64,000 bases of DNA from Bilabrum cf. latius (Eukaryota). Below, piece by piece: positions 1 to 64,000 of this stretch. The stretch lies in contig OZ237738.1 in NCBI GenBank assembly GCA_965178125.1, forward strand, positions 248,001-312,000, read 5' to 3'. A program made the translations under genes and the position numbers. How positions within the stretch are numbered: the stretch's first letter is position 1; each line of letters begins with the position of its first letter. Below the pieces are notes generated by a model. It worked only from the letters and a program-made list of their open reading frames with translations, searched no databases and was not told the DNA's origin.

Positions 1-3000
1 GCGCGCCGTGCGCGAAAGCTAAGCGTCAATGTGATGGCGATAGACCGTGTGCCCGATGCGTCCAGCGCAATCATGCGCATTTGTGCATTGACAGCGTCGA
101 CAAGCGCAGCAAGTCATCAAAGCCGAACAGCTCGTAGAGCTCCGCTCGGTCTAGTACCCACAAAGTTGCTGCACCGCCAAAGCAACGATCAAGCGATTTG
201 AGTCTTGAGCTTGCTGATCCGGTGGCTGGCTATCCAAGGCCGCCCCCTGGGGGTGGGGTATGGGGCCAGGTGGGCGGGCAAGCCAGTGCCGGGCCCCGCC
301 CACAACCGCTCGTGATGCCGCCTGGAGGCACGCCAGGTGGAATACCGTACCTGGGTAACTCTCCGGGATCGGGAATTGCTGGTGGGCTAGTGAGGCGGGG
401 CCAGAGCGGCGGCTCTCCCCTAGGTCGTGGCGCATCAGCCGAGGCCTCCACAGCTGGCGCGCATAATCGAGGTGGGTTTGGTGCTTCTGGCTCTGGCACT
501 GGCAGGGCCGCGCTGGCCAGCGGGTACAGTGGGGAGATACGAGCTAGCTCTGGACGATAGGGGGGCGGCCGGAAGAGTCTTGCTGGCTAGGCAGTGTTAT
601 CCAACGTGTACCAGGCCCGGCCACCGCTTGACACGTCGGCAGGATCTGCAGTCGATCCCGGGTCTTTCTCTGGGTCCAGCTTGGCTCTTGATAGGTCGGT
701 GCTTCCCCCCTCTGGTCCTGGTTAGATGGACATGCAGCGTGGCTCATTAGGCGCTAGTTCTCGCAGCTTCGGAGCCGGGAGTGCGACTGATGCAGACCTG
801 TTTGCGGAGTCTGCACCGGCGCAACAGCACTCAATGGCGGGGCGGGGTGGCCATAGGGCGAGCGCGGCGTCCTCCTAGCCTGTTTAGCAGTTCTCATCCG
901 CATCTGGTACTCGTGGCACTCCGCAGGCAGCCCATTAGTCTGCTGCAGGCATGCCGATGGGCGCTGGACTGGGACTAGGGACCAGCTCAGCCGGTGCAGG
1001 AATGGAGAGGTTCCCCAGAGCGACCGCTCCGCCCTTCGCGGTGCCTTCCGGGGCGCAGTTTGTCGCAGGTGTGAGGGAGGTGTCCGCGTCTGACAGTAGC
1101 CGGAGCATTTCTGAGAGCAGAGAGATCGAAACGATGCTGCCACCGGCGCGACAGGACAGCAATACCAGCGGACAGTTTCCACTGCTCACGGTGCCGCCGT
1201 CTAGCTCGGCAGCTGCAAGACAGCAGTTGCCACCTGTCCGACCGCTGATGGTAGTTTCATCAGGTGGAAAACAGATCAGGGGCCCAGCGTACCGGCAAGG
1301 CGCGCAGGCAGGCGCCAGCAGCAGCGCCAGCAGCAGCAGTAGTGGTGCTGGGAGTGCTCTGGCGCAGGCGGGGCAAGGTTTGCTGCAGCAGAGCTTCAAT
1401 CGAGGCGGTCCAGGGCAGAATCCTCCCACGATGCAGGCCGTGCAGCAGAGAATGGGAGGTAGCAGTGACAGCCTGCCGCTGGGAAGCTCCAAGAACCGGG
1501 CTGAGCCGTCGCAGGAGAGGGGGGCCATCTACAGCGGGGCAGTAGCAGGGCAAAATGCCTTCCAGAGCGTGACATCTGCGGGCAGCATGTCCATGTTTTC
1601 ATCTGGATAGACGGGTAGGCAAGCTCCGAATCAGAATCAGGGGCAGACCCTGGGCCAAGGGGATGGCCAGGGCATGGGTTCACCTGGAGCCGCGGGTGCT
1701 CGACCAGCGCAGCCAAGCGGCATGTTCTCATCGGGGGGTACCCATGGGCCGCAAGCAACTGCCATGTTTTCGTCCGGCGGGACGGCGGAACAAAGCGGGA
1801 TGTTTGAGTCTGGTCAGAGCGTACCAAGGGGCGGGGCTAGCTTGTTTTCATCTGCCGGTTCCGCCCCGCAGGGGCAACAGACGCGATGGGCGAACAGTCG
1901 AGGCGGTACTGGCCCCAGCCAGTCACAGGGCGGCCCGCCAGCCACTGCCCAGCTGATGGATGACAAGGGAAACGTGCGGTTCCAGCTTCCTCTGCGGCGG
2001 CCGCATCGACGGAGGAAGGTGGATGGATTTGAGGGCGTGTCGATCGACGAGTGCGGTGGCCTGCGCATTGAGCTTGGCGACGTGGCGGGGACCGGACCGT
2101 CCTTGTCCACGGAAAGCGGTGCGAGCGCAAGGTCGTTGGGGCCATAGAGCGGGGGCTGCGGCAGCAGCGTGGAGCCGCCCAAGGCAGGCGTGAAGGCTCT
2201 GCTGGGAGCCGGAACGCACTTTGGGCTTGCGGTCCCTGCAGGCATCGAGGCTGAGATCGATTCCAACATTGGGCGAGTGGGCGACCTGCCGTCCGGACGC
2301 GACTGCTGGATGCCAGAGGATGACGCCGCGTGCGCTGCGTTGGCTTGCTCTGATGTGCCCTCAATCCACTACGTCCACGATGGTCGCAAGCTCGAGCCTG
2401 CCTACGTTTGGTACTCCCCAAGTGCGCTGCAGTTCCTTCGTATGGACAGGGGCAAGCTGCGATGGCTGCTTGGTGCCGTAAAGGGCAGCGTGTCCGGGAA
2501 GCTCAAGGCAAAGCGCAAGCGGCGCGGGAAGAGCAAGAGTGCGTTGGCTCCGTTCGTGTGGATCCACCCGGACGATGTGCCCGCGCACTCTGCTGCTATC
2601 CTGAGACAGCACCTGGTTAGACACGAAGAATCGAGGTCGATGGCTAGAGTGGTGGTGTTTGGCGCGCCGACGGAGCCCGACTATGGCAGCGGAGCATCCG
2701 TGGTGAGTGGTACAACAGGCACAATGCGAACTGGGGCATCCGCAGCAGGCGCTCCTGGGGCGGCCTCGACTGCAGGCAGGGACACTAGCATGCCGCTGAC
2801 TGGACCGCCTGCCAGCGAGCACCCGCTGGACAATTTGGTTGGTCGAGCAGTGCCCTGCGCGTGGGTGACCCGCGTGCACTGGCACGGGGTGTGCCCCCGG
2901 GCGATGACCGTCGTCATGCACCCGCTGCCGCGGGATGGCTGGCACATGCGCGCGTTCTACAACATGCCGAGAGGCATGTCTAGCAGGCAGCAGAGACTGC

Positions 3001-6597: not shown

Positions 6598-9303
6598 TCA
6601 GAACCTGAAGGTCGTGCTCGCACCCATAGCCCAAGGAAATTTGTCACGGAGCGTCTGGGGGAAGACCTTCTCGATCGGGCAGCTGTTGCGCTTGCACCAC
6701 GCGACGGTGACGCGGGGGTCCATGTAGTTGATCTTGCTGGTGCTCAGACTCACGTTCTTGGTGTCGTCCTTGTTCTTGAGAGCAAGCTCCTTCTTGCGGA
6801 TCCTATCCTCGTATGACTTGACCCTTCTAGTGACCGTTTCCGCGCTCGGCTGCTGGCCAAACAAGTGCGACTCGGCGGCTCTTCGCTCCTTCTGCAGGTC
6901 GGTCAGCTCCGAGGTCTTCTTGGCCCAGTGCGGCTTGCTCGAGTCCTTGAGCTTGAGCTTGGTACCCTTCTTGACCTAGTTTCGCATCGTCTTAAGCTCC
7001 TTCAGCTGCTTCTTGAGCAAGTCCAAACTGGCCTGCATCTTAGCTAGGGACTTCTCGAAGCTCTTCGGCACTGATCTCTGATGGTTGCACAGGATGGCCA
7101 CCTTCTTGTTGGCCCGATCGTACTCTACCTTCATGTCGTTGGCGGTGGCCCACGGCTTCATGTCGCCAATCTCGCGCTCCAGCGTAATCGACGCGTTGTA
7201 GGTACGGAACACCTTGGCCGAGAGCCCAGGCATGAGCTTATGCAGCTCATCGTTCAGCTTGCTGGGGTTCAGCTCGTCAAACACGTCCTCCTGAGGCTGC
7301 TTGCCTCTGCAGAAGCTGCGAATGTTCTCGTACACCTTGCGCCCGATGCGGCCGTACCGCCCGATGTCGAGGGTCTGAAAGAACCTCATAGAATCCTTGC
7401 CGAGGAAGTCAAACGTGATTGCGTACTGCTTCTCCTCGCCTGCAGCAGCGGCAGCTGAAGATGAGGACGACGACGACGACGACGACGACGAGCTAGCCCC
7501 GCCCGTAGCTGCAGTGCCTTCCATGTCCTCGTCCTCCTCGTCGCTTGGCACCGCATCGTAGTACACCTCTTCTCCGTCCATCTTCGGCGCCCTGGGCCCG
7601 CCATCCTCCTAAAACTGGATGTGTTCCACTCGCAGGGAGCAGCATCCCACCGTGTCCGCCTCGTCGTCGTCCTTCTCTCCGCCAACACGCAGCGCCAGCC
7701 GGTCGATGATCCACATGGCGGTGCCGCACTGCTGCTCAAACTTGTCCCTCGAGTCCAGCAGCCGCTCGTAGTGCGACCTGACGCGCCCGATGATGCGCGC
7801 AAGCTTGCGCGCCTTCTCGTACTTGTTCATGTCGCTCTTGCCCTTGAACCCGCTGCTGGCCGCCAGGTACACGTACTTTGTGCCTCCCATGACGTTCTCG
7901 CGCCAGAAGGCCAGCCATGTGACGGTCGGGTCGTGTATGACTCGGCCCCACTGGTGACCAGGGACCGGGCAGGGTGGCACGACTGCCTCTGGGCTGAGGT
8001 TGAGCGTGATCTGCTCGGGCTCCACCCTCCGCTTGAGCGTGCCCATCTTGGGGTGTACGCCGCGCCCGCGGAACAAGCTCGGCGGCTCGCACATGTAGTT
8101 GCCCATCTTCTGCAGGTGGCCGTCCACGATGGCGTACCCGTGCTTGATCTGCAGCTCCGTCTTGCCCGACTTCGCCGCCTCCTTCTCCTCCTTGGTCATC
8201 GCGTCCTTCTCCTCCTTCAGCTTTTCGAACCGGGACACGAAGTCCTTGAAGTCCACCTTCTGCAGGTCCTTGATCTTGTGGTCCCTTCCCAATGCCTGCA
8301 CATGGTGTGTTTAAGAGCGGTGGAAACAGAAACAAGGGATTGCACACAAGCAGTGGTGAGACCAGGAGCACCTTCACCATCTGCCCTCATCGCGAGCGGT
8401 GCTCTGGTTGATCACTCTGAACTAGACGCGCGCGGTTGGCATTTGATCCAGCGGTCTATTCTCTCACCTTGCTCCAATCCTTCCAAAAATTCTTTCTGAA
8501 CAGCCTGGCAGTCTCCTCCTTCTGCAGCTGCTGGATGTTCGTGTACAGGCACTGGGCGTACAGGTTGGCCATCTCCTCCTGCACGGGAGTCAGGCGCACC
8601 GCTTCGCCCTCGTAGTACACGGGCAATCCATGCGGCTCGTAGTCTGGGGGGAAAATCACGCCGGCGTGCTCCATCGTGGTCCAGTGGGTGCCAGCCGGAG
8701 GTTCAGGCTCGTCCCACCATCGGTGGGCTTGCATGGCAAGGTCCAAGATCTTCAGATCGCTGAGCTCCTTTACCTTACCGGTCCTAGCCACTACCTTAAC
8801 GCCACTAGCCGATTTAGATTTCGACTTCGACGCCTTGCTTGCTGTTTTCTTCCCTTTCGCCTTCGCAGAAGGCTTCTTGGCCGCCTTGGGCTTCTTTGCC
8901 GCCGGCTTCTTGGCTTTTGCCTTCCCCTTCTTCGCTGAGGCCTTGCTTCCGGACTTCGATCCAACTCTTGCCTTCTTCTTCGCGGGCTGCATTGCAAAAC
9001 AGAGTCACAGATGAGGGCGCCGAGAAGATATGCGAAACGGTGCGACCTCCAGGCTAGCTAACACCAATCGGGGTCATACTGGACATTCTTGCTCACCTTA
9101 GATGTCTTTGATTCGCCATCATCATCAAAATCACCATCCGAATCGCCATCCGCTCCAGGTCCGCTGTCGTCTGAGGCTTCGAAGTCGTCTTCTTGGCCGT
9201 CGCTTTCAGCATACGAGATTTGGTCACGCTTTCGCTTCCTTGACGACCCTTCGCTTCCCCCTTCCATTGGTACCTGATCCGAACCGGCACCTGAGCTGGC
9301 CAT
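6598..9303 (-). CDS. TOP1: DNA topoisomerase I (type IB), ~807 aa, 3 exons: 9303-9097, 8986-8468, 8295-6598
   Basis: Motifs [79 protein letters not shown] and catalytic SKINYMDPR. Two in-frame TAGs (7609-7611, 6976-6978) must be read through to reach the catalytic Tyr. Ends at TGA. Confidence 0.97.
7466..7491. repeat. (GAC)8 microsatellite encoding poly-Ser in a TOP1 insertion
   Basis: gacgacgacgacgacgacgacgacga on the + strand; TCG run on the coding strand. Confidence 0.9.
8296..8467 (-). other. Spliceosomal intron 2 of TOP1 (172 nt)
   Basis: AAG|GTGAGAG ... TGTGCAG|GCA joins NFWKDWSK to [16 protein letters not shown], matching conserved TOP1 spacing. Confidence 0.9.
8987..9096 (-). other. 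Spliceosomal intron 1 of TOP1 (110 nt)
   Basis: AAG|GTGAGC ... TTTTGCAATGCAG|CCC joins KTSK to PAKKKARV in frame. Confidence 0.8.
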
Positions 9304-26303: not shown

Positions 26304-26543
26304 TACGAATCAAATGCGAAGGGTGTGTAAAATCTACGCCAACACCTCTAAGTTCGAACAAATTTTGAGATACGGCCCAGATCCGTTGAGGACTATTGTT
26401 GCGTGTGGTTCCGCCGGCGCCGTCGCCACCAGACTGATTGATCTTGTGGGACCCGCCCCCCTTCCATGCATGGCACGCGAATACTCCAGAATTGATACTT
26501 TGCAGATTGCAAGGAGAAGAATAAGTTAACTCGATCAGACGAA

Positions 26544-29500: not shown

Positions 29501-29824
29501 GCCCACCGAGACGGATGGTTGCCTCTTTGGCATCATCCGGTACGGAGCTGCGAGGAGCGAATACAACCAGAGTTTGTGAAATAGGAGGGTGATAATCATA
29601 GCTCCAAATCATTGTTTGGATAATGTATGTTTTCCTTACAACTGCACAAATCCAAATCCCTTGGATTCTCCGGCGGAGTCCCGAATCAAGAATGCTCGCT
29701 GCACAGGCCCAGCTTCACTAAAGTGATCCTAAAGCTACTCTTCAGTCACATCAGACGCAATTCTCCGCACAAATACCGTACAATCATTCTTAGATTGCCG
29801 TCCAAATGCAGCTCCAGCCGCCAT
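26544..29824 (-). CDS. RBM28: RNA-binding protein 28 / Nop4 (multi-RRM nucleolar ribosome biogenesis factor), ~1,062 aa, 2 exons: 29824-29640, 29547-26544
   Basis: RRMs TVFVRRIA...SKGFGFVQF, RLIVRNLHF...RGFAFVTF...GRPVAVDWAL, KTLFVRNLPF...RGSAFVQF. Nop4-specific DKRHLYLAEEG, LSPTRLSVR, SKGYAFIEFAEHVHALAALRVLNNNP and RPRLIVEFAVEN. Acidic linker present. Six in-frame TAGs; ends at TGA. Confidence 0.93.
29548..29639 (-). other. Spliceosomal intron of RBM28 (92 nt, phase 2)
   Basis: TT|GTAAGG ... CTCCTCGCAG|C restores RNP1 KGFGFVQF-SVPDDAKEA. Confidence 0.9.
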
Positions 29825-30095
29825 ACCGCGAGTATTTATTGCACTTGCACCTGGAGAGCTGTGTACCCCTTCCGAGTCGAAAACGGAGCGTTCCTTTATG
29901 AGAAAAGAAGGTTCATCAACCCACGGCAACAAAACGACCTCCTTCGCCTCAATTGCTTGGCATTGAAGTATTGATACCAAATTTATAATTATCGTCGCGG
30001 TCTTCAGCGAAATCTTTTTCTTAGGCTGGGAATCGTGCATCTTTGAATCCACCACACCGCCGCGTCTCCACAGTTGAACGGAAACATTCGCCGGG
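29825..30095. promoter_or_regulatory. Putative bidirectional promoter (RBM28 / hypothetical gene)
   Basis: 271-nt AT-richer spacer between divergent start codons. Confidence 0.55.
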
Positions 30096-31667: not shown

Positions 31668-31761
31668 CGATCGCCAAATGTTGCCAGTGGAGTTGTCGCT
31701 ACAAAAACGTATCAAATGTGCTATCACCTGCACGGGTAAGGTTGACCACGAACCTATTCAA

Positions 31762-33831: not shown

Positions 33832-33853
33832 TGCCGTAGATTCGATTGCGTAA

Positions 33854-33859
33854 AATAAA
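33854..33859 (+). promoter_or_regulatory. Possible polyadenylation signal (AATAAA) of RNF32
   Basis: AATAAA 22 nt after the TGA in a short AT-rich spacer. Confidence 0.3.
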
Positions 33860-33904
33860 GTCAACTTCCTAAACTTCCTATTGTTGCAGGGCACATGCGG
33901 CCAG

Positions 33905-38569: not shown

Positions 38570-38931
38570 GCCAAACCGTGGTCAATACCTGCAAGGCCGC
38601 TGAGTCCCAGTGGTGGACGCGCTGACTAATTTCAGGAGCCAGCGCGGATTCCGCTCGAGAACCGTGTTCCCCTTTAAGACTGAATAGAATAAGGATATAT
38701 GCTTAGTTGTATTTGATCACCTGCTAGCAGAAGCACTTCTCATAGGTACTGTTTTCCGGCACCTCGCATATCGTTGGTTGGCGGTGCTGTGCGTTTTTGC
38801 GGAACCATCTAGAACTTGAAAATTGCGCGGCGACCTCAGGGAAATGGTATTCTTTTCTCTCCACTGTGCACTTGGCAAGGCCTCCTGCGCCAAATTTTTT
38901 AGCTTAGAGGATTAAGCGATAGGGTGTAGCC
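38570..38931. promoter_or_regulatory. Putative bidirectional promoter (3R-MYB / LysRS)
   Basis: 362-nt AT-richer spacer between divergent start codons. Confidence 0.55.
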
Positions 38932-40962
38932 ATGGAAGCAGGAGGATCCGAGAAGAAGATTGATAGGTCTGCGGCAGATGCCGAGGAAGCCGAGGCAGCG
39001 AAGCTCGGAATGAGCAAGAAGCAGTATCGCAAGTACCTGAAGAGGCAGGAGGCCGACCAGAAGAAGGCCGAGCGAAGTGTCAAGCAGGCGGCATCCGCAA
39101 AGAAGGGTGCTATGGTGAGCGAACTGCGCGGTGCCGAGTACACTGCGCATCGTGCCAAGGTGTACAAGGCTGCGGTGGAGAAGGAAGGCCAGCCCATGTA
39201 TCCACACAAATACCACGCTACCATGTTGCTGCCAGACTTTGTCGCGAAATACGACCCCCTTGCCGAGGCCGGAAAGGAGGTGGAAGGAGCAGAGGAGGCG
39301 CTGTGCGGCCGAGTTCTCCTGGAGCGCCGGCAGTCGAAGAAGCTTTTCTTTGTCGACCTGCATGCAGATGGCGCCAAGGTCCAGCTGATGATGAACAAGG
39401 CATCATTCAGGGACCCGGCGGAGTTCGACCGGTACTCGAAGCTGGTTGCCCGAGGAGACATTGTGGGCGCCAGGGGCGTGCCATCGCGCACCAAGCTTGG
39501 GGAGCTCTCGCTGTCCGTGCGGTCCGTGACCATCCTGTCGCCCTGCCTGCACCAGCTGCCCAGCTCCGTGGTTGGCATGAAGGACAAGTCTATTCGGTAC
39601 CGCCAGAGGTACCTCGACCTCATGGTGAACCGCTCCACGAGGGACATCTTCACGGCGCGCGCACAGATCGTCAACTTCGTCCGGAGGTACCTGGACGAGA
39701 GGCACTTTGTCGAGGTGGAGACGCCCATGATGAACATGATTCCAGGCGGTGCGACTGCGAAGCCGTTCGTGACCTACCACAACGACCTCAAGATGGATCT
39801 ATTCATGAGGGTGGCACCCGAGCTCTACCTCAAGATGCTCGTCGTGGGAGGGCTGGACCGAGTCTACGAGATCGGGCGCCAGTTCAGGAACGAGGGTATC
39901 GACATGACGCACAACCCCGAGTTCACCACGTGCGAGTTCTACATGGCCTACGCGGACTACAACGACCTGATGACGATGACCGAGGAGATGATCAGCGGAA
40001 TGGTCAGGGAGATCCACGGCACCACCAAGATCAAGTACCACCCCGACGGTGAGGGCGAGGGGAAGCCCGAGATCGAGCTGGATTTCACCACCCCCTTCCC
40101 CCGCGTGCCGCTGGTGGAGGGTATCGAGGAGAGGGGCGGGTTCAAGATCCCCCAGCCGCTCGAGTCCGAGGAGGCCCGCAAGTTCCTGGACGACAAGTGC
40201 ACGGAGCTCAAGATCGCGTGCCCCGCGCCGCGATCCACTGCCCGCCTGCTGGACAAGCTGGTGGGCTACTATATCGAGGACCACATCGTGGAGCGACCGA
40301 CGTTCATCATCGACCACCCTGAGCTCATGTCCCCGCTAGCCAAGTACCACCGCTCCAAGCCGGGCCTGACCGAGCGATTCGAGCTGTTCATCGCGGGCAA
40401 GGAGGTTTGCAACGCGTACACAGAGCTGAATGACCCCGCGGTGCAGCGGGATCGCTTCATCGAGCAGATGTCCGCCAAGGCGGGTGGCGACGATGAGGCG
40501 CAGCCGCACGACGAGACCTTCTGTAAGGCGCTCGAGCACGCGCTGCCCCCCACGGCCGGCTGGGGCATGGGGATCGACCGCATGACCATGTTCCTCACCG
40601 ACAAGAACAACATCAAGGAGGTGCTTCTGTTCCCCGCCATGAAGCCCGAGCTCGGCGGCAGGGGCATCCGGGACCTGGATCTAGGCACCGCAGACGGAGT
40701 GCGCGCCCTCGACGACTTCCTCCGGGTGGAGGGGCGTCTATTCCTGGGAGGCGCCAAGCCAACCAAGCTGGACGCTGATTCCTACGACGCCATGTGCAAG
40801 GCGCCGGAGGAGGACGTTGCCAAGTGTGCCAACGCGAGGGCTTGGTTCGACATGGTTGGCGCGTTCACGTCTGCGGTGCGCAAGTCCTGGGCGGCAGAGA
40901 AGGTCGAAGCAGCCAGCGGGGCCGGAACTGACGGCGGTGCTGCCACTGGCGGAGGCAAGTGA
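38932..40962 (+). CDS. KARS1: Cytosolic lysyl-tRNA synthetase (class II), 676 aa, with a C-terminal extension
   Basis: YPHKY, OB-fold anticodon domain, [80 protein letters not shown]. No internal TAG; ends at TGA. Confidence 0.98.
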
Positions 40963-41144
40963 GCTGCATAGGGACTGTAGGTCCTCGGCGGATTGTTCGT
41001 GCGTGCACGTATCTCAGACGCGCGTAGGCCTCAGCTGCATTGCGGCCAGGCCGAAGCCGCGTCTGAGTGGATGGTGGTTTATCATACACATTAAGTTCGA
41101 ATACGAGCTTTGATTGCATGCTCAACGCGCTGCTCCCACCACCC

Positions 41145-43976: not shown

Positions 43977-44832
43977 TCCGAGCGCACGTCTTAGAAATCC
44001 TTGACTCCAACAATGAATTAAACTTTGCCTGTTGTGGTGTCATGCCACACCATTCATCGCTTAGCTGAGGGCACGGGAAAGGTAATACTATCTTCATCTT
44101 TACTTTTTAATGTCGAAAAATTGTCTCTGGCAATGGCCTAGTGGCACGTCTTGCGACCGCCGGCGCTGGCATGCTGCTAGGCCTATGGCGAATTGGATCG
44201 GGCGACCACATTACGCGGGTTACGCATAGACCGCGCTTCAAAGCTTGACTGCGGTGAGATTCGTTGCTTGAGTATTATCTTAAGCAGTTGTGGGTTCATT
44301 CAAGGTGCCATGCAGCGAAAAGAGGCAGTTGGGGAAAAAACCCGCAAACGGCATCCAAGAGTCAGCGCCTGATATATTTCCCTTATGCGGTTTACCCTCG
44401 CAGCTGAATTCGTCGCCTCATATTGCACGACTGTCTAGATCAGTCTGTCGTTGCTGATTTGAGGTGAATAAGCCAGGTGAGAGACAGCCACAGTGCCAAC
44501 TACGTCACTAGCCCTGTGTTCCTATCTCGGGTACTGAGAGGCAGTTTTGACTCAATCATGGAAAATATAGCATTTTGAGGCTAACATGATTCTTGATGTA
44601 CTGCGTGCGACACGCATTGTACCAGATGTTGACGTCAACAGCCAGCGATGTTCGCTTGACAGCCAAAACATTCTTGATGTTGACTTCACGATGCCTTGTA
44701 CAGCCCCACTATTGGTTCTTCTCTTGCCACGTTGCATACGAATGCATTCAATTTTGATGTGGCACAGACATGTACTGCCGATAGCCTAGCTTGTGCAATT
44801 TTTGTTGCCGTCCGCAGCTGGAATCTGCTCCT
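43977..44832. promoter_or_regulatory. Divergent intergenic/promoter region (glycosyltransferase / giant surface protein)
   Basis: Longest non-coding stretch in the window (856 nt), lower GC; may include a 5' exon or UTR intron. Confidence 0.45.
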
Positions 44833-47800
44833 ATGCTGGAATTGCACAGTAGAAGCAGATGCACCGCATCTGTGTTCGCTGCTCTTCTGCTTGCTTCTAG
44901 TGCATATGCGAGTGTAAGCGTAGATGGATCCCTGCCTAGCGACGGTGCGACTTCGGTCGCGCTGTCGCCGTCGACGATTGAGATTCACTTCGACACGGCA
45001 ATCAAGGCGCGTCCAGGTCACTCCGTTTTCGTCGTCCGCCGCTCAGACGGCGTGGCGGTCGCCGAGTTTGACGCTGGTATCGCCGCAATTGACGACAGGG
45101 CTGGGACACCGGACAGTGTTCTACAGTTCAGCCTGAGGGTAGGCGAGGAGCTGGCCGCGCCGCTCGATCCCGAGACAGAGTATGCCATCACTGCCGAGGC
45201 AGGTGTGGCAGAGGACGCCACCGACTCGACCTCGCTGTCCCCTGCCATCGTGCTGGGCGGCAGCACGTCTCCAACTTTTACTACAACCAAGCTTCCCGGC
45301 TGTGCCAACTGGCTTTCGGCCGTGGATGCCATCTCATCCGGAACGTACGAGCCTTGGATGTCCAACACCGCCCACTGCGACTTTGTGTCGCCCACTGGAG
45401 CCATGACTCTGGTGGGATACGCCACTGCGTCCACCACGCAGTCCTCGGCTCTGCTGCCCGGCAACCTCAACGTGGAGGACCAGGCATCGGGCACCTCTGT
45501 GTTCAACGCGAGCAGGAGGAGCGGCGGTGCCACGCTGGAGGCCGATGAGGGGCTGGCGCGCGGTGCCATCGGGCTCATGGTGTCGGGGCGAAGCGGCAAG
45601 TCCTCGGCTGGGCTGCGGGGGTCAAGCACATACGACCACGCGTACCTGATCCAGTACCCCTCCCGGGCGGTGGGCGCAGATGGTCCATCACTGGTGCGCG
45701 GGTCCAGTGCCTCCACCAGCCAGGCCTGCACCAACTTCGACTGGGCCACCGTGTCGTGCATGTCCACGGGGGCAGACTCGGACGCCTGCGTGAACAACGT
45801 CCTGCCGCCTCGCATGCAGGTGGAGGGCAGCACCATGACGGTGCAGGGGGGTGACGGGTACGGAGCAGTGGCCCGTATCTCGTCCACCACCGCACTCTGC
45901 GATTGGACCCCTGATTCCAACGGAGTGGCCGCCATCTACGCAGGAGCCGACTCGGGCGCTGTGAGCGCCCTCTATCGGGTGCCGGGTGGCACCACCTACG
46001 GCCGAACATTCGGCTCTGTGGCCGTGTGGACAGCAGGGGAGGCCCCCATGCAGTCTTGCCGCGCGCACCTCGATGCAGCCACGGGAGATCAGATGGTCGC
46101 ATGGTACCTGCTTCCCGGCGGAGGCGCACCCCGGCCCAACGGCGACGTGCGCGACTACTCCGGCCGTGGCTTTGACCTGCCCGCCACCAGCCAGTACAAG
46201 TTCAGCGCCTCCGATGGTGGGTTTCTGTTCAAGTCCGCCACTACAACTGAAGAGGCCGGCGCAGCGCAAGCAGGCAGCAGCGACACCCCTGTCCCCGTGG
46301 AAGGTGACTAGGCCTTCTCGTTCTGCGCTTGGTTTCGGTACGACGGATATCAAGGCGGCACCCAGTGGCCCTCGTCCCTGTCCTATGCGCCCATCCTGGG
46401 GCTGCGCGCATACAGCGGCATTCAGACGAACCAAGGCCTCGTCTTCGGTGCGTTCAAGGGCGGCCGGCTCGGCGTGGATTTCCGTGGGGCCCGCGTGCTG
46501 TCCAAGGACGCCGGCACCGTGGGCGAGTGGACCCACGTGTGCGTGACCAGGACTCCCTCAAGCAAGAAGCTCGAGAGCACCACCATCTACATCAACGGAG
46601 CCAAGGCAGTGGCTCAGCTAGACACGGACGCCGCCATCCGCGGCCAGCCGTCCGCCAACGCGCCCCCCTCCATCAAGGCAGCTCCCCTGCAGCTGGGAAT
46701 CCACCAGGACCCCGCCAGTGGCAACGAGCACGTGTGGAACGGCAGGCTGTACGACGTGCGGTTCTACTCGCGGGCCCTGTCCATGCGTGACGTGGTCGCA
46801 GTGCACGGTGCTGCAGGCGGAGGCCCTTCACTCATTGGCCTTGAGGTCAGCGCACTTGCCAAGGCAGCCGCTGATTGGGACTTTGACGGGGGATCTTCCT
46901 TGGACGAGGAGGGCGCCAGCACTGCGTCTGCTGCTGCCACCCGCAGGAGTGCCGCTCTGGTGAGTTCGATGAACCGCGTGGGAGGCAGCACTGCCTCGTC
47001 CACTGGCTTCTAGTGCTCGCTGGAGGGCACTGCACGCGTGAGCGGTGGGTCTCTTGTGCTGGACGGGGCTGGGCATGCAGATTGCGGTGCCCTTGCTTCT
47101 GACTTGACCTCGTTCACCATCGAGGCCTGGGTCTCGGCTGCCGATGACCATTCATCTAACGGTGGGGGTGCTGTGATCTCCCTTGCAGAGAGCAAGGACT
47201 CCACCGGTTCATTCGATGCAATCACGTTTGGAGAGCTTTACCGCGGAGAGTGGCTAGACTCGTCCGATGGTCGCCGCCGCACCAGCTCGTCCCAGCGCAC
47301 CCCCCAGGAAGAGGACTCGTTCGGTGGCAGCCGCCGCATTCACCTCGTGCTCACGGTGGATGCAGCCACCAGGACTCGCACGCTCTACAAGGACGGATAC
47401 GCCCTGCGCAGCCGCACCACTTCCTCCGTGCAGACCCACAGCAGGTCCACGCACCGTGTCCTGATCGGGTGCAGGAACCCCTCCTGCACGGACAGCGGCC
47501 GCAGGTTCCGCGGTGCCGTTCATCAGGCTCGTGTGTACTCCGGGTCCATGACAGCCTCGGAAGTGATTGCTCTGCATCGCCTCGGCGCTACCGCCAACGC
47601 TCCTGGGCTTGCCGTGGGTGGCGAGCTTGGCCTGCTGAACGGACCCCGCCTGCTGTCCCTTGCTGGAGACCAGTCAATGGACGCAAAGGGTGGGTGGCGC
47701 GCTGAGTGTGACATGGACACTGACGATGGCGGCTGGACCCGGTTCTGGTGGTACCACGGACACACGCGGTCTTCGTTCCCATCCGGCGAGAACGACGTGC

Positions 47801-50800
47801 TCTCTGAGGACTTCGGCGATTGTGACCCTGACGCGGACTACTGCTTCGCCAAGATGCCCTCCTTCCTAAAGGAGGAGTCCACGCAGCTGATGGCTCGCGA
47901 CAGCAAAGGCACCACGTACATCTGGACCTTCGACCCGAACAATGACGTGGCCCACCGGGCCTGGCTTGCGTTCAGCAAGGGCGAGGAGACTCTCTACGAC
48001 GTGCTCGAGGACAACTCTGGCCTGGCCTCGGGGCACGCAGACAAGCACGTGTGGCAGCCAGTTGTGGTTGCGCAAGGCGGCTTCCACGGCCGAGAGTAGT
48101 CTTAGTTCATGTACCGGCAGCAGAACGGCATCAAGTCGATCATGCTGGATGACGACGGGTGCTCCTGCTACTCCACGCTAGAGATGGGTCACCCTATGTG
48201 CGGCAACTCGTGGGACTCTCAGTTTGCTTCTGGTGATACCGGGGCTGATGCCATTAACGATGATGGATGCAACGGACCACAGGAAGGTGTTGGTCTCGAG
48301 CTGTTCTTCCGAGAGACTCGCACCGGGGCCACCATGCCTACGGTCCGTACCGAGTCTGCTAGCATCGTCAGTTCGGCAGCAGCTCCCGCTGTTCGCGTCA
48401 AGGTTGTCCGTTCTGCTGCAGGTGGAGCCATCACAAAGCGCTCTCGATCTGCTGGCAGCGGAGCAGCTGCACCTGAGATCGTGGTCGGATTCCACACTGT
48501 GGCAGGCAGTGCTGAGGCTGGCACCCATTTCCTGGCAGCAAGCGGCGAGATTTCGTGGGCGCACGGCGACACGAGCCCCAAGTACATCACGGTCCCGCTG
48601 CAGTCCTCCGGGGCCCAGGCTATCACGGATGACAAGCACTTCACCGTCACGCTGCAGGCACCGCGTGGGGCCCGCTTCCCCGCGCCCCATCCACGCGCTT
48701 CCATGCGGGTAGACAGCGCCGCCTACCGGTCCGTGCGTCAGACCCGTGTCACCCTGCAGCCCATCGTGGGGGCTGGGGGCACGGCGGGCCCGCTTCGTCT
48801 CCAGAGCGTGGGTGAGGGCCAGCTGCACCAGGACGAGCTGAGGCCACAGGTGGACTTCACTCTGCCCGCTGCCATGCAGGCTGGCAACATCGCCCGTGGG
48901 CAGCCGGTGTTCACCTCAGGCTTCCGGTCCAGCAACCGTACCCGGTCGCAGAGCGAGCAGTCTCTGGTGGATGGCAGGTACGGAGACCTTGATGCATTTG
49001 TGCCCGCCGCTGACATGTTCAAGTCTCGCGCCCAGTCCAGGGACTACTACTATGCCGCTGTGGTGCTGCCTGATGGCGGCAAGCGGGTCCGTATGGTGGC
49101 CTTCGGGCGCGACAACACCGGCGTGTTTGCCAACCGACTGATGGGTAACATCACGCTGGAGTACACCCGCGTAATGAACCCTACTGCGACTACCATGGAC
49201 ACCTCGTGGGTCGAGATCGACACGATCCAGCCCACTTCGCCACTGAGGCACCTGTACGCACTCAACACGCCTACTTTTGCCACAGCCCTGAGGCTGAAGC
49301 TTGCCAATAGTACCGAGGGCACGCTGGTGATCGATGAGTTCGAGGTGTATGCTGACACTGGGTCCGCAGACACGACTTCTGACCTGGAGGCCTCTTACGA
49401 CTTCACTGCGGATCAGATTGCCACCAACCTGGGTCAGGTGACTGTGGCTGATCTGTCCGGTAACGACCGCACCGCCGAGGTTGAAGGAACTGTGCAGTTC
49501 CCTGCAACCGCCTTCCAGATCTCTTACGTTAGCCTGCGTGGATCGGGGGGTTTCCTCCGCGTTCCCGGCCTGCGTGGAGCCAATTTCTCGAGGACCGGCC
49601 TGACCGTCAGCATGCTGGCTCGCAGGGCACCCACGGATGCCGCGCGGTAGAGCAGCACAGCTTCACTTTTCAGCACAGGGTATGCCAAGGACAGTCAGGC
49701 GTTTGACTTGAGGTACCTGCAGAGCCCAACTGCGCCCAGCGGAACACCTACCATTCCTCTCACCCGTGAGGTGGCGCAGACTGGATTTTCGGCTCTGCCG
49801 GGCTCCTAGGCCATGCTCCTTCCCGACGACTCGACCGAAACCGAAGACTACTCCCCCCCAGGTGTGTCAGTTGTCGGTCAGGTCGAGGATGCGCCCGCTT
49901 GGGTGATGCTGACGGCAGTGTATGACCGTGACACCAATCGCACCCAGCTGTATGTCAACGGACAGCAGGCTGCCGATGTCGCTGTGGATGGCCTACCCCA
50001 GGTCAGCATCGGGAGCGATGTCACGATCGGCGCGGCTTTGGCTGGTCCTGGCAGTACCACTGGCGGAGGCCGAGGTGTGGTTCCCGGCGGATTCCATGGC
50101 GATGTCGGTCGTGTTCGCGTGTTCAGTCGCGCCCTGACCCCGGATGAGGCGGAGCTTTTGTACGATGAAGTCGCGGATGACATGGCTACAGATGGATATG
50201 CCCTGTGGTGGCGCACCCAGGAACAGAGCGGCAGCTTGCTGCTGGATGCTTCGGGGCACAGCAACTCTGGCAGCGTTGGCGGAGGTGTGTGGAAGGACGG
50301 CGCTCTGCACTTCAGTGGCTCATCGGGCAGCACTGGCAACGGCGCGAGGTCCCTCAGTAACTCTGGACTCGTGGGTGATGCCTCCTTCACGATGTCTGCT
50401 TGGGTATACTACGACGGTGACTTCATCCCGTCTGGTGTGAGTCATATCATGGGTACTGACCTGTCTGGTGGTGCCTCGGCAACTGGCAGTGACTATGCCA
50501 CGCAAGGTACCGGCGTGGCCCTATCATTGCGCAGTGGTGTGCTGTCACTCGAATATGGCCAGGATGTGCGCGTGCAGGGTACCAGCGCACTGGCGCCCAG
50601 GCGGTGGTACCATGTGGCAGTGGTCCGCCGCTCTTTAGAGAAGAAGGATGCGGGAACGCACCTGTTCCTTAACGGTGAGGAGATCAGCACGCAACTGCGC
50701 AAGCCCACTGCGACCTCCGCCGAGGCTGCCCAGAACGCACCCGCGATCGCGGCAGCCCCAATCAGCATTGGTCGACTGGGCTCTGGTCGGAGGTGGGCTG

Positions 50801-53800
50801 GTTTCATCGTGGATGTACGCGTGGTCGCAGAGGCTCTGCGCGGCAGTCGGCTGGTTCGGCTGTACAACAACGGCTTGTTCGTGCGTTGGCCCCTGCGGGA
50901 GGGCAGCGGTACTCAGATCGGCAGTGCTGACTCGATGGACGAGATGGACCCCTCCACTGACATCGAGGTGTCCCAGAATGTAGGACGCGGCGGCCAGCTG
51001 ATCGGAACTACCAACAGCATGGCCTGGAACAGGGGTCTATTGCAGCTGGGCAACCAGGCCGGTGATGCTGTGCGGTCTCTGGCCGCGATGCCTCTGCTCG
51101 GGGATGCGGGGTTCACCATGATGGCTTGGGTGTACGCTAGCACACCTGCCACGAGTGGCGGCTGGGCAGGTGGATCAGTGCCCGGCGTATCTCCAGTACC
51201 ATCCGATGCCATCGACAACACCATCGTGGAGGTGGTAGGTGTGAACTCCACTGGCAGCAGCGGCGGGCTGGCGGGTCGCGGCGAGGGCGCAGTCCTCGGC
51301 GTGGATGGGGCTGGCAGGATCGCGATCGATCTCGGTGGGTCTCTTCGAGTCAGATCCGTGCCTTCCGTTGTGCCTCTCCAGCGGTACGTGCATATCGCCG
51401 TGGTGAAGACGCCAGGGATCGTGAGCACGTCTTCCGTGAAGCTCTTCGTGGACGGTAGCCAGGTAGCCCCCACTGACTTGCGGGTCGTCTCGGTTGTGGA
51501 GCAGACCACTGTGTCACCCACTGCACTGAGCTCCGAGTCTTTCACTGGGTCGGTCAGGCCCAGCTTCCGCTCTGGCACCTTCGTTGTCGGTGCTGTGTCT
51601 GGACCCAGTGCCCCCAGACGCGCCCAGCTGGTAGGATACGTTGACGATGCCCGCATGTACCTCCGTGCAATCAGCAACAGCGACATCACGAGGGTCTACG
51701 ATGATTCGCGCAGGTCACACGTTCTAGACTACTCGCTGAAGTTCGACGGGCGCGGTGAGCATGCGCGATGGCAGTCTGCCTTCTCGTTTGGACCCAGCAC
51801 TGGCACCAGCTCCAACGCTGGCATGACGATCGAGGCGTGGGTGTTCCCGTACAACAGTGCCAGGGAGGGCCAGGTGATCTTCGAGACTAACGATGGTCCC
51901 GGGTCCAACGACATGCAGCTGAGGATCGGTGCATCAGCTCCGTACAACTTCGAGTTCCATGTGCAGAGCAGCTCATCCGCAACAAGGGAAGTGGTGCGCT
52001 CCTCGACGTCTGCGGCTGCCATGAGGTGGACCCACGTCGCGGTGACGCTGGCCACCTCTGGATCTGGATCGACAGCCACCACCACGATGCAGCTGTTCCT
52101 CGACGGCACTTTGTCCGGCTCGCGGGTGCTGACAGGTGAGGCCCCCACCACCAGGTAGCGGGCTAACATGTTCGTCGGTCGTGGAATGAGCGAGCCCGAC
52201 GACGAGACGTGGTATGGGTTCATCGATGAGCTCAAGCTGTGGAGCGTGAAGCGGACTCCGGAGCAGATCGATTCCTCCATGAACGGCAGGGAGCTGCAGC
52301 CCGCATCAGCTTCGGCATCCCAGGCCATTGGCCTCGAAGCGTTCTTGCCCATCGACATTTCGTCTTCTAGTCCTCACCACGACGACGTGCTTGCCGACCT
52401 GACAGTGCTTGAGGACGCATCTGTGCGCGGGCGCACCTTCCTTCTGTCTCGCGATTGCGAGATCGACGGTTGCGTAGTACTCAACCCCAGGTAGCTGATC
52501 AAGACCACGTGCGGCAATGGATTCAGGGATCCCGATGAGCAGTGTGACGATGGCAACCAGATCGCAGGTGACGGGTGCTCGGCGGGGTGCTCGATCGAGA
52601 CTGGCTTCGTCTGTCGGCGCGTGGCTCAGACCGGCGCTGATCAGTGCTTTGAGGGCAAGGTACTGTTCGAGGAGAGCTTCGAGAGCACGAATGCTATCAA
52701 CGCTTGGAGCAGGGTATCCAGCCAGCTGCAGGGCGCGGCTATCAGCACTGACTACGCCTCAATGGGCGCCAGCTCGTTGCAGCTGCGTGCTGCCGAGTCC
52801 GCTTCGGGCACTTCCTCGGTGGTGACCTCTGCTGCAAGGCGCGTGTCAGGTCTCTCTGGCATGGCGGCCTACCCGGACTTTTTGTCGTTCCGGTACTTTA
52901 TCCGCAACTCAGGGTCGAACAACATCATCTCGAGCGTGCCTGTCATGGTGCAGGTGTTCGATGCCACGGGGCTGTCCAGCTCGCAGTCACTGCCCACTCC
53001 CACTTCCTGCGTCAACTCTGGCTGCTCTTCAGCCAAGTATGTGATGGTGTGCATCGACCCCCAGGGCTCCACAGGCTTTGGCGCGCAGCATTGCGACATC
53101 GTGATCCGCTCTAATGCTGACGGTGCCTACCCACCCGGGCATGGCGCCAGCGGTGCAGCCAGCTTCTTCTACGCCAACATCGACATCACGCACGCCTTCC
53201 GATCCAAGTACCAGAGCAATACAGGCTTTTCGCTGCCCACTTAGGTAGAGATTCGAATGATGGCACTTGCCGACAACGGCAACGTCGAGTCCTACGTGGA
53301 TGAGATCCGCCTGCAGGAGCTGCGAGGCGCCGAGGCTGTGGCCAGGGTGTGTCCCCCCGCCAAGATCGTGACCATGCCCAAGTGGAGCGCAGAGATGGAG
53401 GACGGCTACTGGACCATGGAGAGGTCTTACAACTACCAGCTGGGAGCAGTGCAGCTGTCTGACCATCCCACCAGTACCGTCACTTACAGCATGTGGGCAC
53501 GCAATCTGCGATACAACGAGCTGTCACACCACAGCTGGAGAGTTCTGGCCCACTTCCGGACCGACAGCTGGTACTACACGTACCAGGTCTACGCCGTAAG
53601 TCCGAGGCTATCCACGCCGCGTTTAGAGCCCAGGTTTATCTAATTTCTCCCAATGCGTAAGCTTGATTCGACTGTGCTATTCTAGTATCCAACGTATTCG
53701 TTTTTCCCGCAGAGTGGTTATCAATACTACGCCTATATTCGGAGCGGCAACTGGGGACCCCGCTCGTACAACCACATGAACAAGGGGTAGCGATGGGAGC

Positions 53801-56800
53801 ATATTACTGTATCGTACACCACCGATTCCAACAAATAGTCCTACGGTTGCAACAGCGGCACTGCGTACATGTTTGTGCAAGGCGAGCTTGAGGGGGTGTG
53901 GTGCAACAACTACGGCAACCTACGTGCAGACGGATGGCTTGGTGTTGGAAGTTACGTCAGTTCCATCTCAAATAGTTGGCCGCGGACTAGCTACTCGCAC
54001 AATTGGGACGGCGACTTGTCCCACTTCAGCATTTTGAGTCATGCCATCACAAACGCCGATGACGCCCGCGAGCTCATGCACGCCCAAATGTACGTGGACA
54101 TGCACGAGTCGCTCAAGGGGCACGTGTACGCATTCTGGTCTGGCATGACTGAGCACGACATCACCGGCAACCAGGCTGGTCAGGGCGACGTGACTTGGTT
54201 TGATCAGACCGGGAACCACGATATTGACATGATGGGCAAGCATCTGCGAGGTCTTGAGGTGCCTGTCTTCGTGAACGAGCGCGACCACAAGGGGGCTGGC
54301 CTCAGGCATGCACCATCCAACGATTTCTGGGGCGGGTCTTTGACCACGCTTAAGAACCCGAGGCCCACCTCCCGCGTGTCTCGCCTGCGCAATGCACGGC
54401 ACTGGGGTGGCCGATGCCAGATTTACTCGTCTTCAACAACGGACTCGAGCAGCCCGAAGTCCTGGTTTCCCACGCAGACATATACTGTGGTTGTTTGGGT
54501 GCGGCCGCAGTTCAACACGTAGCCGTACTCTTACCCGGTACACCTCGCCAGTTCCTCGAACCAGCAAGAGTTTGCCATGTACAAGTACACTACCTACAGC
54601 AGTGAGTCCCACTACTGAAACGCATAAATACTTCATTGAAAATAGACAACTCGCCTCGAATTTGAATCTTTTGTAGCGCGCGCAGTGAGACATGTGATCA
54701 GGGGATCTCATTACAATGGCCCGTACAGCAACTGGGGGTCGTTCTCCAGGACGGGTGGCAAGTGGATGTAGTTCATCTTTTCCTACGAGGCGTCCAAGTA
54801 AGCAATTGGCCTGTGTGTCGTTTTATAAGTTAATGTTCATGCCATTGCATGTTTCTCTGCCTTGACGAACTTCCTTCTCGCAGCTGCGGCAACATGCGGA
54901 CGTGGCAGAATGGCGCCGGCGGGGAGTACTATGGCACCAGCCACCCATACAGCACTGACTCCACCAGTAGGCAGTGCACAAACCGCGGCAACCTGGGCCA
55001 TGCCACTGCGTCGGGCGCTGCCCACTGGGCCATCGGTGGGTACATCAACAGTCGTGGCTCTACTTCTCAGAGCTCCGGCAGCGCGTTCTACGGCCAGGTT
55101 GGCCCAGTGACTGTGTACGAGAAGGCCATCCTGACCACGTACGAGGCCGAGATGATCTACCGTAACCCGACCAATCTGCTTGACGGTGACCTTGTGGCCC
55201 AGTGGTCGTCCAGCTTCCGGATCACCAACAGCGACTGGAGGGCTCGCCGGGCAGATCGCCAGTACGCCGATTTCGGTGGAATCGACCTGAGTTGCGGACA
55301 CAATACAGAACCCTACATCGTCCAGCCGAACGGTTTGGAACGCCCGTCACTGTTGAACTCATCCTACATCCCATTCGTTGATTTCACCGGGTATGAGATG
55401 AACAAAGCCACTCGATTCAGAGGAGCCCATGCCCGGATTGTCGAGTTCGACGACATGCCAGAGGAGGCCTTCAGCGTCAGCGTGCTGGTCCGGGTGGACC
55501 CCACGCACATGGAGGAGGACTGCATCTTCTCATATTTTTCTTCCTCGTCCCGGCAGTTCTCGCTGTGCTTCCCGGCTGATACCTCCTCGACTAACCCAGT
55601 GCGCCTCTCGCAGAACATGAAGGGATAGATCGGCTCCACCAGCTTCGACTTCCCCGACTCGCCAGCAGGTCACGTGGCCACCGGTGAGTGGGTCCACGTG
55701 GTGATGTCATGGGCCTCCAGCGATGGTATCCCCAGGCTCTGGATCAATGGCGAGCAGCAGACGCACAGCACTCCCATCCTCAGGGGATCCGATATGGACT
55801 CGGGCGGGTGTTTGATGCTGGGTCGAAAGGCCACGACGGCTGTGTGCGGTGTGTCCTCCGCGGATGACGACTCGTTCGAGGGCCATGCGGCCCAATTCTC
55901 TCTCTTTGACCATGGCCTGTCGGCCACTGAGGTTGACGCGCTGTACCTGGCAGCCCCCTCTGGCCTGGAGGATGGCCTTGTACTGGCTTGGCTGAACGCG
56001 GTGCCCGGCCCCGACCCAGAAATGGATTCGGAAGATCTCATGGACCGGGACGAGTGGAAGATCGGTAGGGGTCGCGAGACCGTGAATACTCTTTGGCGAG
56101 ACCTACTTCGCAAGAATCACGGCGAGTTTGTCGGCACCACGAGCCAAAGCCTCATGCCACACTGGGTGCATCCGTCCAACATCATGGCTGGAGCCTGGGA
56201 CGGCTACTACGCGTACTATGCGTACACCAGCTAGTACTTTTCGTGAGTCGCAGACTCTTGCCTATTACGTAGCTGTTTGTGGTCTTATTCCCCCTCATCT
56301 TGCTATGCACCTCTGCTTCTTGCTCATACGCGGCCTCAATCTCGCAGGAGGTGGCATCATAAGTACTGGCTGGACGGACATGCCGAGTTCTACGGAACCT
56401 CGTACAACTCGCGCTACACGTCCATCAGAACCTACCATAATCCGAAAAAGAGTGTGCGCTACTACAATCGAAACAACTACTGGACTTACTACACGTCGTC
56501 TACCAGTGGATCAGGGTCGAGCTACTACTCACCGCTGCGAACCGTGGTCAGCGGACTCTCCAGTGGCACTCTCGCCTCAATGCATTCCGCTTGGTATGGT
56601 GAGAACTTCAGTCTGCTTTGTAATGTTCTCGCGAATCATGAAATACTTCATATCGAAGTGTGCCAGTTTAATACTTCTCTACGCCTTTGCAGGCCCATAC
56701 TGGCAACCGCGCTCTGGACTGTATGCTCACGCGTATGAAGCTGCCGACATGCTCGGGTGCAACAACTCGTACCCGTACGCTGCATCAACTGGTACGAATT

Positions 56801-62800: not shown

Positions 62801-64000
62801 CTGTGAGCTTCGCGCCCCCCGTCCTGAACTCAACCGTGATGACCGCGGACCTGCCAGGCAGTGGGGGAGGTACCTTCACCATCCGCGGTACTGGCTTCGG
62901 GCCGTTGGGTGCTGTCGGTCTCAACAACGCGCGCTCTGCCTTGCAGGTGGTGTATGCCCCTAGCTGGGACACGAGTGGGTACACGTACACTGGCCGGGGC
63001 TGCGCGGTGACTGTGGCCCACACTGAAGCAGAGTGCACCACGGGCGAGGGCTTCGGCGCCTCAAACTGGGTGATCCTTCAAGTGGCGGATGCAAGTGTGG
63101 AGGAGAGCCGCCGAAGCACCGATTCGCAGACGCTCCGGTCAACGACACTGGATGACGCCATCAGGTTTGCTGCCCCTGTGGTGACCGACCTGCAGACCCC
63201 GTCCCAGACCGGGGGCCAACTGAGCACGGCAGGCCGCCAGCTCATCTCGATCTAGGGTAGGAACCTCGGCCGCTTCAAGGCATTCGGAGATGAGACGGCC
63301 CAGTCCCAGCAGCCTGGTCTCTTCCCTGCAGCTGGGTCTGGGGACTGTCCTCGCGGGTGGTCTGCATGCTCTCATGTGTACTCGCAGGGTGTGGCCAGCG
63401 CGCTTGGCTCCACTGCGGGCATGTATCCGACCGAGTCTGACTCCATGGTGCCGCGGGTGTCAGCCGCAACCCCGCCGGGGAGTAGCTCCGATGGTGCGGT
63501 GGGCTAGCCGATGCACCCTGGCATCATCTCGGTGACCTATGGGTATTTGCCGAACGGGACCACCCTCGCCGAGGCTGAGTCCATGATCTCGCAGTACAAC
63601 ACCGACCGACGGTCTAGCGTGGACTCTGCCACTGCAGCAAAGATGACCGATATCTTGCCCCCCAGCCTCAGTGCCCCGCTCTCTCGATTTAGGCCCACCT
63701 GCCTTGTCCTGGTTGCCCACACCATGCTGCAGTGCGAGACTGTGCCCGGCTATGGTGCAGGCGTAGTGTTTGTCGTGCGTGTGGGAGGCTTGATTTCATT
63801 GGTGCAGGAGGAGTCGCCGTTCACCAGCTACATAACACCGAGCGTGTCTGGTGTCACTGGTGACGGGGCATTCAACGCTTCGACTCGCGGGTCGCAACTG
63901 GTGCTGATCTCAGGTGCACAGTTAGGGTCGCGCGACCTGCAGCCCGTGACCAGGGTCCGTTACGGTCCCTACGACCCGTCGAACTCGCCCGCCATGAGTC
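44833..64000 (+). CDS. Giant secreted/surface adhesin-like protein, 3' partial, >6,200 aa: Big_5-like Ig, multiple LamG-like domains, fibrinogen-like segment, Calx-beta, Cys-rich DUF4215-type repeat, ILEI/GG-like domain, roughly 9-10 cadherin repeats, IPT/TIG repeats
   Basis: Signal-like [14 protein letters not shown]. LamG motifs WTHVCVT...IYING...[39 protein letters not shown]...ISWAHGD. CGNG...[18 protein letters not shown]. Cadherin DxNExP, AxDxD and LDYE motifs. IPT motifs GTNLG and GTGFG. About 22 in-frame TAGs and 5 introns. The exact start is uncertain because an acceptor-like ...GTCCGCAG just upstream could indicate another exon. Confidence 0.88.
53596..53712 (+). other. Intron (117 nt) in the giant surface protein
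   Basis: GCC|GTAAGT ... TTTTTCCCGCAG|AGT; contains the TAA that ends ORF 53257..53643. Confidence 0.88.
54602..54676 (+). other. Intron (75 nt) in the giant surface protein
   Basis: A|GTGAGT ... CTTTTGTAG|CG, phase 1, restores the frame. Confidence 0.75.
54798..54883 (+). other. Intron (86 nt) in the giant surface protein
   Basis: AA|GTAAGC ... CCTTCTCGCAG|C, phase 2, explains the frame change into ORF 54849. Confidence 0.85.
56243..56347 (+). other. Intron (105 nt) in the giant surface protein
   Basis: TC|GTGAGT ... ATCTCGCAG|G, phase 2, joins to [10 protein letters not shown]. Confidence 0.82.
56599..56692 (+). other. Intron (94 nt) in the giant surface protein
   Basis: G|GTGAGA ... CCTTTGCAG|GC, phase 1, explains the frame change into GPYWQPRSG. 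Confidence 0.85.

Follow-up and report, generated by a model that had tools for sequence, protein, structure and literature searches.

Changes of the nuclear genetic code are rare. Rarer yet are those that give UAG and UAA different meanings, known from only a handful of lineages (PMC11687900). UAG alone is translated as glutamine (Gln) in the fornicate Iotanema spirale, in the ciliate Protocruzia tuzeti and in two lineages of phyllopharyngean ciliates (PMC11687900; PMC5304391). PMC11687900 also describes UAR codes, in which both UAA and UAG encode Gln, in many ciliates, Ulvophyceae, Hexamita, Streblomastix and Amoeboaphelidium, as well as codes in which UAG stands for Leu (an uncultured rhizarian) or for Ser (Scotinosphaera). 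Our literature search, which lay outside subscription journals and supplementary files, retrieved no change of the nuclear code for stramenopiles or bicosoecids, only mitochondrial cases. Here we analyse a 64-kb stretch of contig OZ237738.1 (hereafter the window, with positions counted from its first letter), whose protein-coding genes contain numerous in-frame TAG codons. We read it, with a probability of about 0.82, as nuclear DNA of a GC-rich unicellular stramenopile near the bicosoecids in which UAG is a sense codon, most likely for Gln, and UGA ends all nine complete genes.

The GC content is 62% overall and 57-68% across the window in 4-kb bins. Under the standard code the longest reading frame reaches 944 amino acids (aa), while frames of 5598, 2961, 2638, 2147, 1558, 1056 and 964 aa appear when TAG is taken as sense. 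The 12 coding pieces that we delimited (19,129 codons) hold 89 in-frame TAG codons and not a single in-frame TAA or TGA. Read in its two remaining frames, this DNA contains 6.1 TAG, 2.4 TAA and 17.8 TGA per 1000 codons, so that about 46 TAA and about 340 TGA would be expected in frame by chance. TAG occurs in 11 of the 12 gene models, on both strands, as the sole type of internal stop and without frameshifts, the lysyl-tRNA synthetase (LysRS) gene being the lone model that lacks it. All nine genes that are complete at their 3' end inside the window terminate in TGA, none in TAG and none in TAA. Two other assignments were tried and rejected: TAA as sense brought no gain in frame length, left the longest frame unchanged and opened no gene beyond the read-through of one intron, and TGA as sense gave a maximum frame of 1363 aa, a lengthening of the size expected for the commonest stop.

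Several properties of these TAG codons are those of ordinary sense codons. Pfam domains span them in the topoisomerase I (TOP1), RRM, MYB, RING, ankyrin, LamG and cadherin proteins, and conserved sequence resumes past TAGs located near gene ends, as at residue X2109 of gene 1, which aligns to Gln in a relative. They are distributed evenly over the length of genes, with 5 to 13 in each decile and 11 in the last one. The next base is C in 31%, G in 33%, A in 18% and T in 18% of cases, much as it is after CAG, and the TAGs show no signature of read-through. The genes with the highest GC content at third codon positions (GC3) are poor in TAG, namely those for LysRS (GC3 0.83, no TAG) and TOP1 (GC3 0.85, two TAGs), and TAG makes up 6-18% of the sum of TAG, CAG and CAA in the remaining long genes. 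With total counts of 89 TAG, 582 CAG and 136 CAA, TAG would represent about 11% of Gln codons if it encodes Gln. An earlier reading of the window from its letters alone (the sequence-only reading) had already proposed that TAG is reassigned to sense, and our results uphold it: TAG is the sole internal stop in 11 of 12 genes, is kept in spliced, polyadenylated transcripts and is present in relatives. Its statement that 9 of 10 genes are broken only by TAG was right as to the stop type and the lack of frameshifts and falls short of the real tally of 11 of 12 gene models. Its manual count of about 95 TAGs agrees with ours once the further LamG exons (53.7-56.2 kb) are joined to the 89, and the six TAG positions that it quoted (7609 and 6976 in TOP1 and those in RBM28 RRM1, RING2, a zinc finger and MYB R1) are all exact.

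Public sequencing data show that TAG is retained in transcripts. We compared four runs from three studies (X1, X5, X6 and X7) with the window over positions 26400-44100, using contigs, from which rare variants drop out, instead of raw reads. The DNA contigs of X1 cover this whole interval with no difference. X5, X6 and X7 yield gene-sized contigs, and all three omit exactly positions 29548-29639 of the minus-strand RBM28/Nop4-like gene, a 92-nt spliceosomal intron that ends in CT..AC on the plus strand, that is, GT..AG for this gene; the joint 29547/29640 is absent from the X1 DNA contig. A loose end of 23 T in X5, 44 nt beyond the stop codon of the MYB gene, corresponds to a poly(A) tail. The spliced joint and the poly-T end together identify the X5-X7 contigs as processed mRNA. 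The listed contigs of X5 contain 31 TAG codons, all without any other letter or gap (14 in the MYB gene, six in RBM28, four in the RING gene, one in the coiled-coil-like gene P0131 and six in the glycosyltransferase gene), and the X6 and X7 contigs differ from the window at no TAG. Such TAG-identical transcript contigs exclude an assembly error, U-to-C editing or a hidden mini-intron at the covered sites. The persistence of UAG in spliced mRNA, which the sequence-only reading had proposed as a check, is thus borne out by the processed-transcript contigs, and the CAG that it had named as the mark of an assembly error is found at no covered TAG in the four runs. The genes are not free of introns, however, and the sequence-only reading overlooked several: the 92-nt one of RBM28, one of 117 nt in LamG and two or more towards the 5' end of TOP1. 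The only places where the runs depart from the window are a CTT insertion behind 29162, seen in X5, X6 and X7 and falling in a repeat that encodes Lys and Gly (KG), and a G>A change at 30062, which comes from one low-depth contig of X6.

Two environmental relatives of this organism also use TAG as sense. A scan of metagenome contigs for TOP1 gave two confirmed loci among 271 pattern matches, one of 6,725 bp (L001) and one of 3,665 bp (L002), coming from two metagenomes, 100% identical to each other over 3,665 nt and with a GC content of 55%. L001 is syntenic with positions 1-10 kb of the window: it carries TOP1 flanked by the 3' ends of the giant gene and of gene 1, in conserved order and orientation; identity over aligned residues is 83% for TOP1, 49% for gene 1 and 49-58% for the flanking genes. 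Its 1,891 codons include 11 in-frame TAG and no TAA or TGA, and none of these 11 TAGs coincides with a TAG position of the window. The gene-1 homolog of this relative terminates in TAA, and none of the three relative gene ends is a TAG. A closer relative is represented by protein fragments in public collections, with MYB fragments at 81-92% identity. Four of five MYB fragments end exactly before TAGs of the window (X554, X610, X984 and X1436 of P0004), one MYB fragment begins just past the TAG of MYB R1, and fragment P0252, at 88% identity, stops exactly before TAG X3570 of the giant gene. The search for shorter relatives of the giant protein gave one match among 8000 candidates scored and is informative for that one conserved TAG boundary only. 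The presence of TAG in both relatives implies a clade-level trait, and the fact that TAG positions are shared with the close relative and not with L001 indicates that TAG sites come and go as lineages diverge, in the manner of ordinary codons.

To place the organism, a LysRS tree was inferred with FastTree from 118 rows and 571 columns that comprised top matches only, after dropping two partial or fused plant records (P0134 and P0197) and one fused record (P0193). Bicosoecida sp. ms1 forms a clade with the window sequence and its relatives (support 0.975), which is nested in a larger one that includes brown algae and oomycetes (0.87), and the best named TOP1 matches are oomycetes and diatoms, at 43-46% identity. 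This single-gene evidence suggests a stramenopile near the bicosoecids.

To determine the amino acid inserted at TAG, we aligned 122 rows of TOP1 (the window, two pieces of the metagenomic relative and 119 homologs, leaving out that relative's own fragment P0009). One TAG of the relative falls in a column occupied by Gln in 118 of the 119 homologs, and a second one in a Lys/Arg column (74 Lys and 21 Arg among the 119); the window codon is CAG in both cases, and the remaining TOP1 TAG columns are variable. Over all alignments we retained 16 pairs of a TAG with a residue, 13 of them from L001 (at least four of eight flanking residues identical) and three from the close relative, five weaker pairs having been dropped. 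The partners are Gln (four), Arg (three), Ala and Lys (two each) and Thr, Leu, Asp, Gly and Glu (one each). Gln is the commonest, and four or more Gln in 16 pairs would arise with a probability of 0.002 at a background frequency of 3.4%. Three of the Gln partners are encoded by CAG, one transition away from TAG, and the fourth by CAA. Log-odds under BLOSUM62 are +6.0 for Gln, +3.2 for Arg, +2.2 for Lys and +0.7 for Glu, and a matrix estimated from the same alignments gives +6.7 for Gln, with -4.8 for the next best residue, so that Gln has the top likelihood under both models. A likelihood based on neighbouring residues was not discriminating, its top candidates (Val, Gly, Met, Gln and Leu) lying within 3 log units. 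Among RRM proteins, Gln occupies the first of the two RRM1 TAG positions in the solved Nop4 chain 9qjc_B and both of them in Pab1 RRM3. In these alignments TAG swaps with CAG and CAA and occupies a near-invariant Gln column, and, given that it is sense, it very probably encodes Gln. TAA, by contrast, is not a sense codon: no in-frame TAA occurs, where the ratio of CAA to CAG (136:582) would predict about 21, and TAA ends the gene-1 homolog of the relative.

Several observations weigh against the reading of the window as stramenopile DNA with UAG encoding Gln. Gln is found in only 4 of the 16 pairs; the TAG of MYB R1 aligns to Glu in c-Myb (PDB) and in SNAPC4; two TAGs of the window, X752 and X824, are matched by Glu and Arg, respectively, in the close relative; and one TAG of a relative stands opposite a Leu of the window (CTG) in a conserved context. 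The run records do not class X5-X7 as RNA and X5 is even labelled 'probably DNA', their RNA status being our own deduction. The taxonomic placement comes from one LysRS tree and lists of TOP1 matches, the sample amounts to 64 kb, and with just nine gene ends seen an occasional use of TAG as terminator could have escaped notice. The residue data might be accommodated if UAG encoded a different polar amino acid (Glu, Lys or Arg), a possibility to which the Glu of the solved Myb proteins, the three Arg, two Lys and one Glu among the pairs, and the second TOP1 column with its 74 Lys and 21 Arg all lend something. We nonetheless consider it unlikely, in view of the TOP1 column with Gln in 118 of 119 homologs, the first rank of Gln among the partners (4 of 16, p = 0.002 at the 3.4% background) and the codons of those partners, three CAG and one CAA. 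As to Glu, it is frequent in these proteins and has a self-conservation of 0.69 in the same alignments, yet it accounts for a single pair out of 16.

Somewhat less credible still is a dual meaning of UAG, sense within genes and a context-dependent stop near some 3' ends. Codes of this type do exist, as in Condylostoma, karyorelict ciliates and, for UAA, Blastocrithidia (PMC4967479; 10.1101/2022.04.12.488043), and nine observed gene ends would leave room for one; however, TAG ends none of these nine genes and none of the three in the relative, the even density of TAGs extends through the last decile (11, within the range of 5 to 13), and the base after TAG reveals no special context. As for the possibility that the TAGs are untranslated, being the product of pseudogenes, assembly or sequencing error, UAG-to-CAG editing or small introns, it is the default under the standard code, we found no evidence that supports it, and it is highly improbable. 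It would have to account for 11 of 12 genes broken by a single stop type with no TAA, no TGA and no frameshift, for the fact that no covered TAG differs between the window and any of the four runs, which stem from three studies, for transcript contigs that are collinear over 31 TAGs while a true intron is removed, and for the conservation of TAG positions in the close relative. UAG as a sense codon, most likely for Gln, is consequently the reading that we retain.

The genes of the window can be described in order from its first position. Gene 1 (P0005; 3..6446, plus strand), open at the window start, encodes a large protein with 16 TAGs, ends in TGA and has its homolog on L001; Pfam gave no family for it, for P0131 or for the piece 53713-54615. 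The main exon of DNA topoisomerase I (P0001; 6598..8310, minus strand) matches the Pfam families Topoisom_I (1.4e-82), Topoisom_I_N and Topo_C_assoc and ends in TGA. Its two TAG codons, read from the sequence, lie at 7609-7611 (VEHIQFXEDG, where X is the TAG) and 6976-6978 (TMRNXVKK). Upstream exons and introns (8311..9303, minus strand) form a partial model, obtained by three-frame reading and alignment to the L001 exons, with the start ATG at 9303-9301 and at least two introns in this 5' part. In the TOP1 core (7400-7600, minus strand), an acidic insertion of about 70 residues, rich in Ser and Ala, separates the VEHIQF and ITFDFLGKD motifs; it is also found in the metagenomic relative and is missing from most of the 119 homologs, 98 of which are gapped at the TAG column.

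The giant gene (P0129; 9513..26303, minus strand), with 5,596 codons plus the stop, contains 21 TAGs, ends in TGA, has a Pfam Ank_2 match (5.6e-29) and corresponds to the relative fragment P0252. It forms one unbroken frame of 16.8 kb, whose product is rich in Ala and Gly and has its ankyrin repeats near the C-terminal third. The protein also contains several Lys/Gly tracts (GKGKKGKGK type), similar KG tracts are present in the RBM28-like and MYB proteins, and such tracts have led to cross-joins between contigs at 28171-29184. The RBM28/Nop4-like RRM protein is encoded on the minus strand by an exon 1 (29640..29824), which holds the first half of RRM1 and two TAGs (29737-29735 and 29731-29729), and, beyond the 92-nt intron, by an exon 2 (P0002; 26544..29547) with four TAGs, a Pfam RRM_1 match (1.2e-36), a TGA end and coverage by RNA contigs. 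Two plus-strand genes follow, both ending in TGA and both with four TAGs. One encodes a coiled-coil-like protein (P0131; 30096..31667; RNA contig 30771-31720), the other a protein with two RING fingers (P0003; 31762..33831; RNA contig starting at 31713), whose TAGs include those in the zinc finger at 32197 and in RING2 at 33655.

The three-repeat MYB protein (P0004; 33905..38569, minus strand; Pfam Myb 1.3e-39) has 14 TAGs, one of them in MYB R1 at 38047-38045, and a TGA end. Poly(A) is added to its mRNA near 33861, and the RNA contig (33861-38716), which bears the 23-T loose end, shows no difference from the window. The LysRS gene (38932..40962, plus strand), devoid of TAG, ends in TGA. Its product carries a C-terminal extension of about 90 residues (40700-40962), which is also present in Bicosoecida sp. 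ms1, Pythium and unnamed environmental sequences and not in the choanoflagellate sequence of the same alignment. Next comes a glycosyltransferase with a DXD-type domain (P0006; 41145..43976, minus strand), with six TAGs, a TGA end and an RNA contig at 41208-44012. A secreted protein with repeated Laminin_G_3 domains (P0007) is encoded on the plus strand, its first long exon (44833..53595) containing nine TAGs. This exon is followed by a probable in-frame intron of 117 nt (53596..53712), recognised from its GTAAGT..CAG borders and polypyrimidine-CAG acceptor as a reading of the DNA alone. The TAA that ends the raw frame 44758-53643 sits within this intron, which thereby mimics read-through of TAA under a code with both TAA and TAG as sense. 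Further exons, provisionally delimited (53713..56246), contain additional in-frame TAGs, and the gene probably runs on to about 56.2 kb with another Laminin_G_3/Pentaxin domain. The last gene, for a cadherin-repeat protein (P0008; 56692..63999, plus strand; Pfam Cadherin 3.2e-70), has seven TAGs and an uncertain start and leaves the window. Of the 89 codons that directly follow an in-frame TAG in these genes, 11 encode Gln where 3.3 would be expected (Poisson p ~0.0007), and the codon after ordinary Gln codons is Gln in only 4.9%; the origin of TAGs within CAG-CAG pairs or a decoding preference are possible causes of this excess.

If UAG is indeed read as Gln, a tRNA-Gln with anticodon CUA, or an altered tRNA-Gln able to read UAG efficiently, would be needed, together with an eRF1 blind to UAG. 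The tRNA scan of the window, L001 and L002 yielded no tRNA gene, and no eRF1 gene lies in the 64-kb window; we infer a genome-wide extent of the reassignment, a CUA-anticodon tRNA and an altered eRF1. Since TGA is the dominant stop in this GC-rich genome, UAG may first have dwindled as a terminator and may then have been captured; a codon-capture origin in a GC-rich genome terminating almost exclusively in UGA is plausible. We give even odds to the broader proposal that this is the first nuclear stop reassignment in stramenopiles, a clade trait of at least three lineages (the organism of the window, its close relative and the more distant environmental relative with 55% GC) in which UAG alone passed to Gln and UAA was kept, and which arose in a GC-rich genome where UGA was already the dominant terminator. 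If true, the reading of UAG as Gln in a stramenopile clade would add an independent origin, in a major group of eukaryotes, to those already known and would offer a natural test of the codon-capture route to the uncoupling of UAA and UAG. DNA and RNA data appear to exist for cultured, or at least sequenced, members of the clade, and its environmental relatives differ in GC content; with such material the changes in eRF1 and tRNA could be followed and the succession of events dated. In practical terms, gene callers set to the standard code will fragment about nine in ten genes of this organism, and public protein collections already contain such fragments.

Compared with the described codes, that of the window is closest to those of Iotanema, Protocruzia and the phyllopharyngeans, where, as here, UAG alone is apparently translated as Gln, UAA is still a stop and the usual coupling of UAA and UAG is broken. 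It differs from them in its lineage, a stramenopile according to the LysRS tree and the TOP1 matches, in its GC content of 62% and in the TGA that ends nine of nine genes. Like the UAR codes, it translates a stop codon as Gln, for which a tRNA-Gln of altered anticodon is probably responsible; unlike in those codes, TAA is not sense in the window (none in 19,129 codons, with about 21 expected) and terminates a gene of the relative. The rhizarian and Scotinosphaera codes likewise have UAG alone reassigned in a non-ciliate nucleus, whereas Leu is the partner of TAG in 1 of 16 pairs and Ser in none, both scoring far below Gln. NCBI translation table 15, in which TAG is Gln, would translate the window correctly, as a matter of bookkeeping that is silent on lineage or mechanism.

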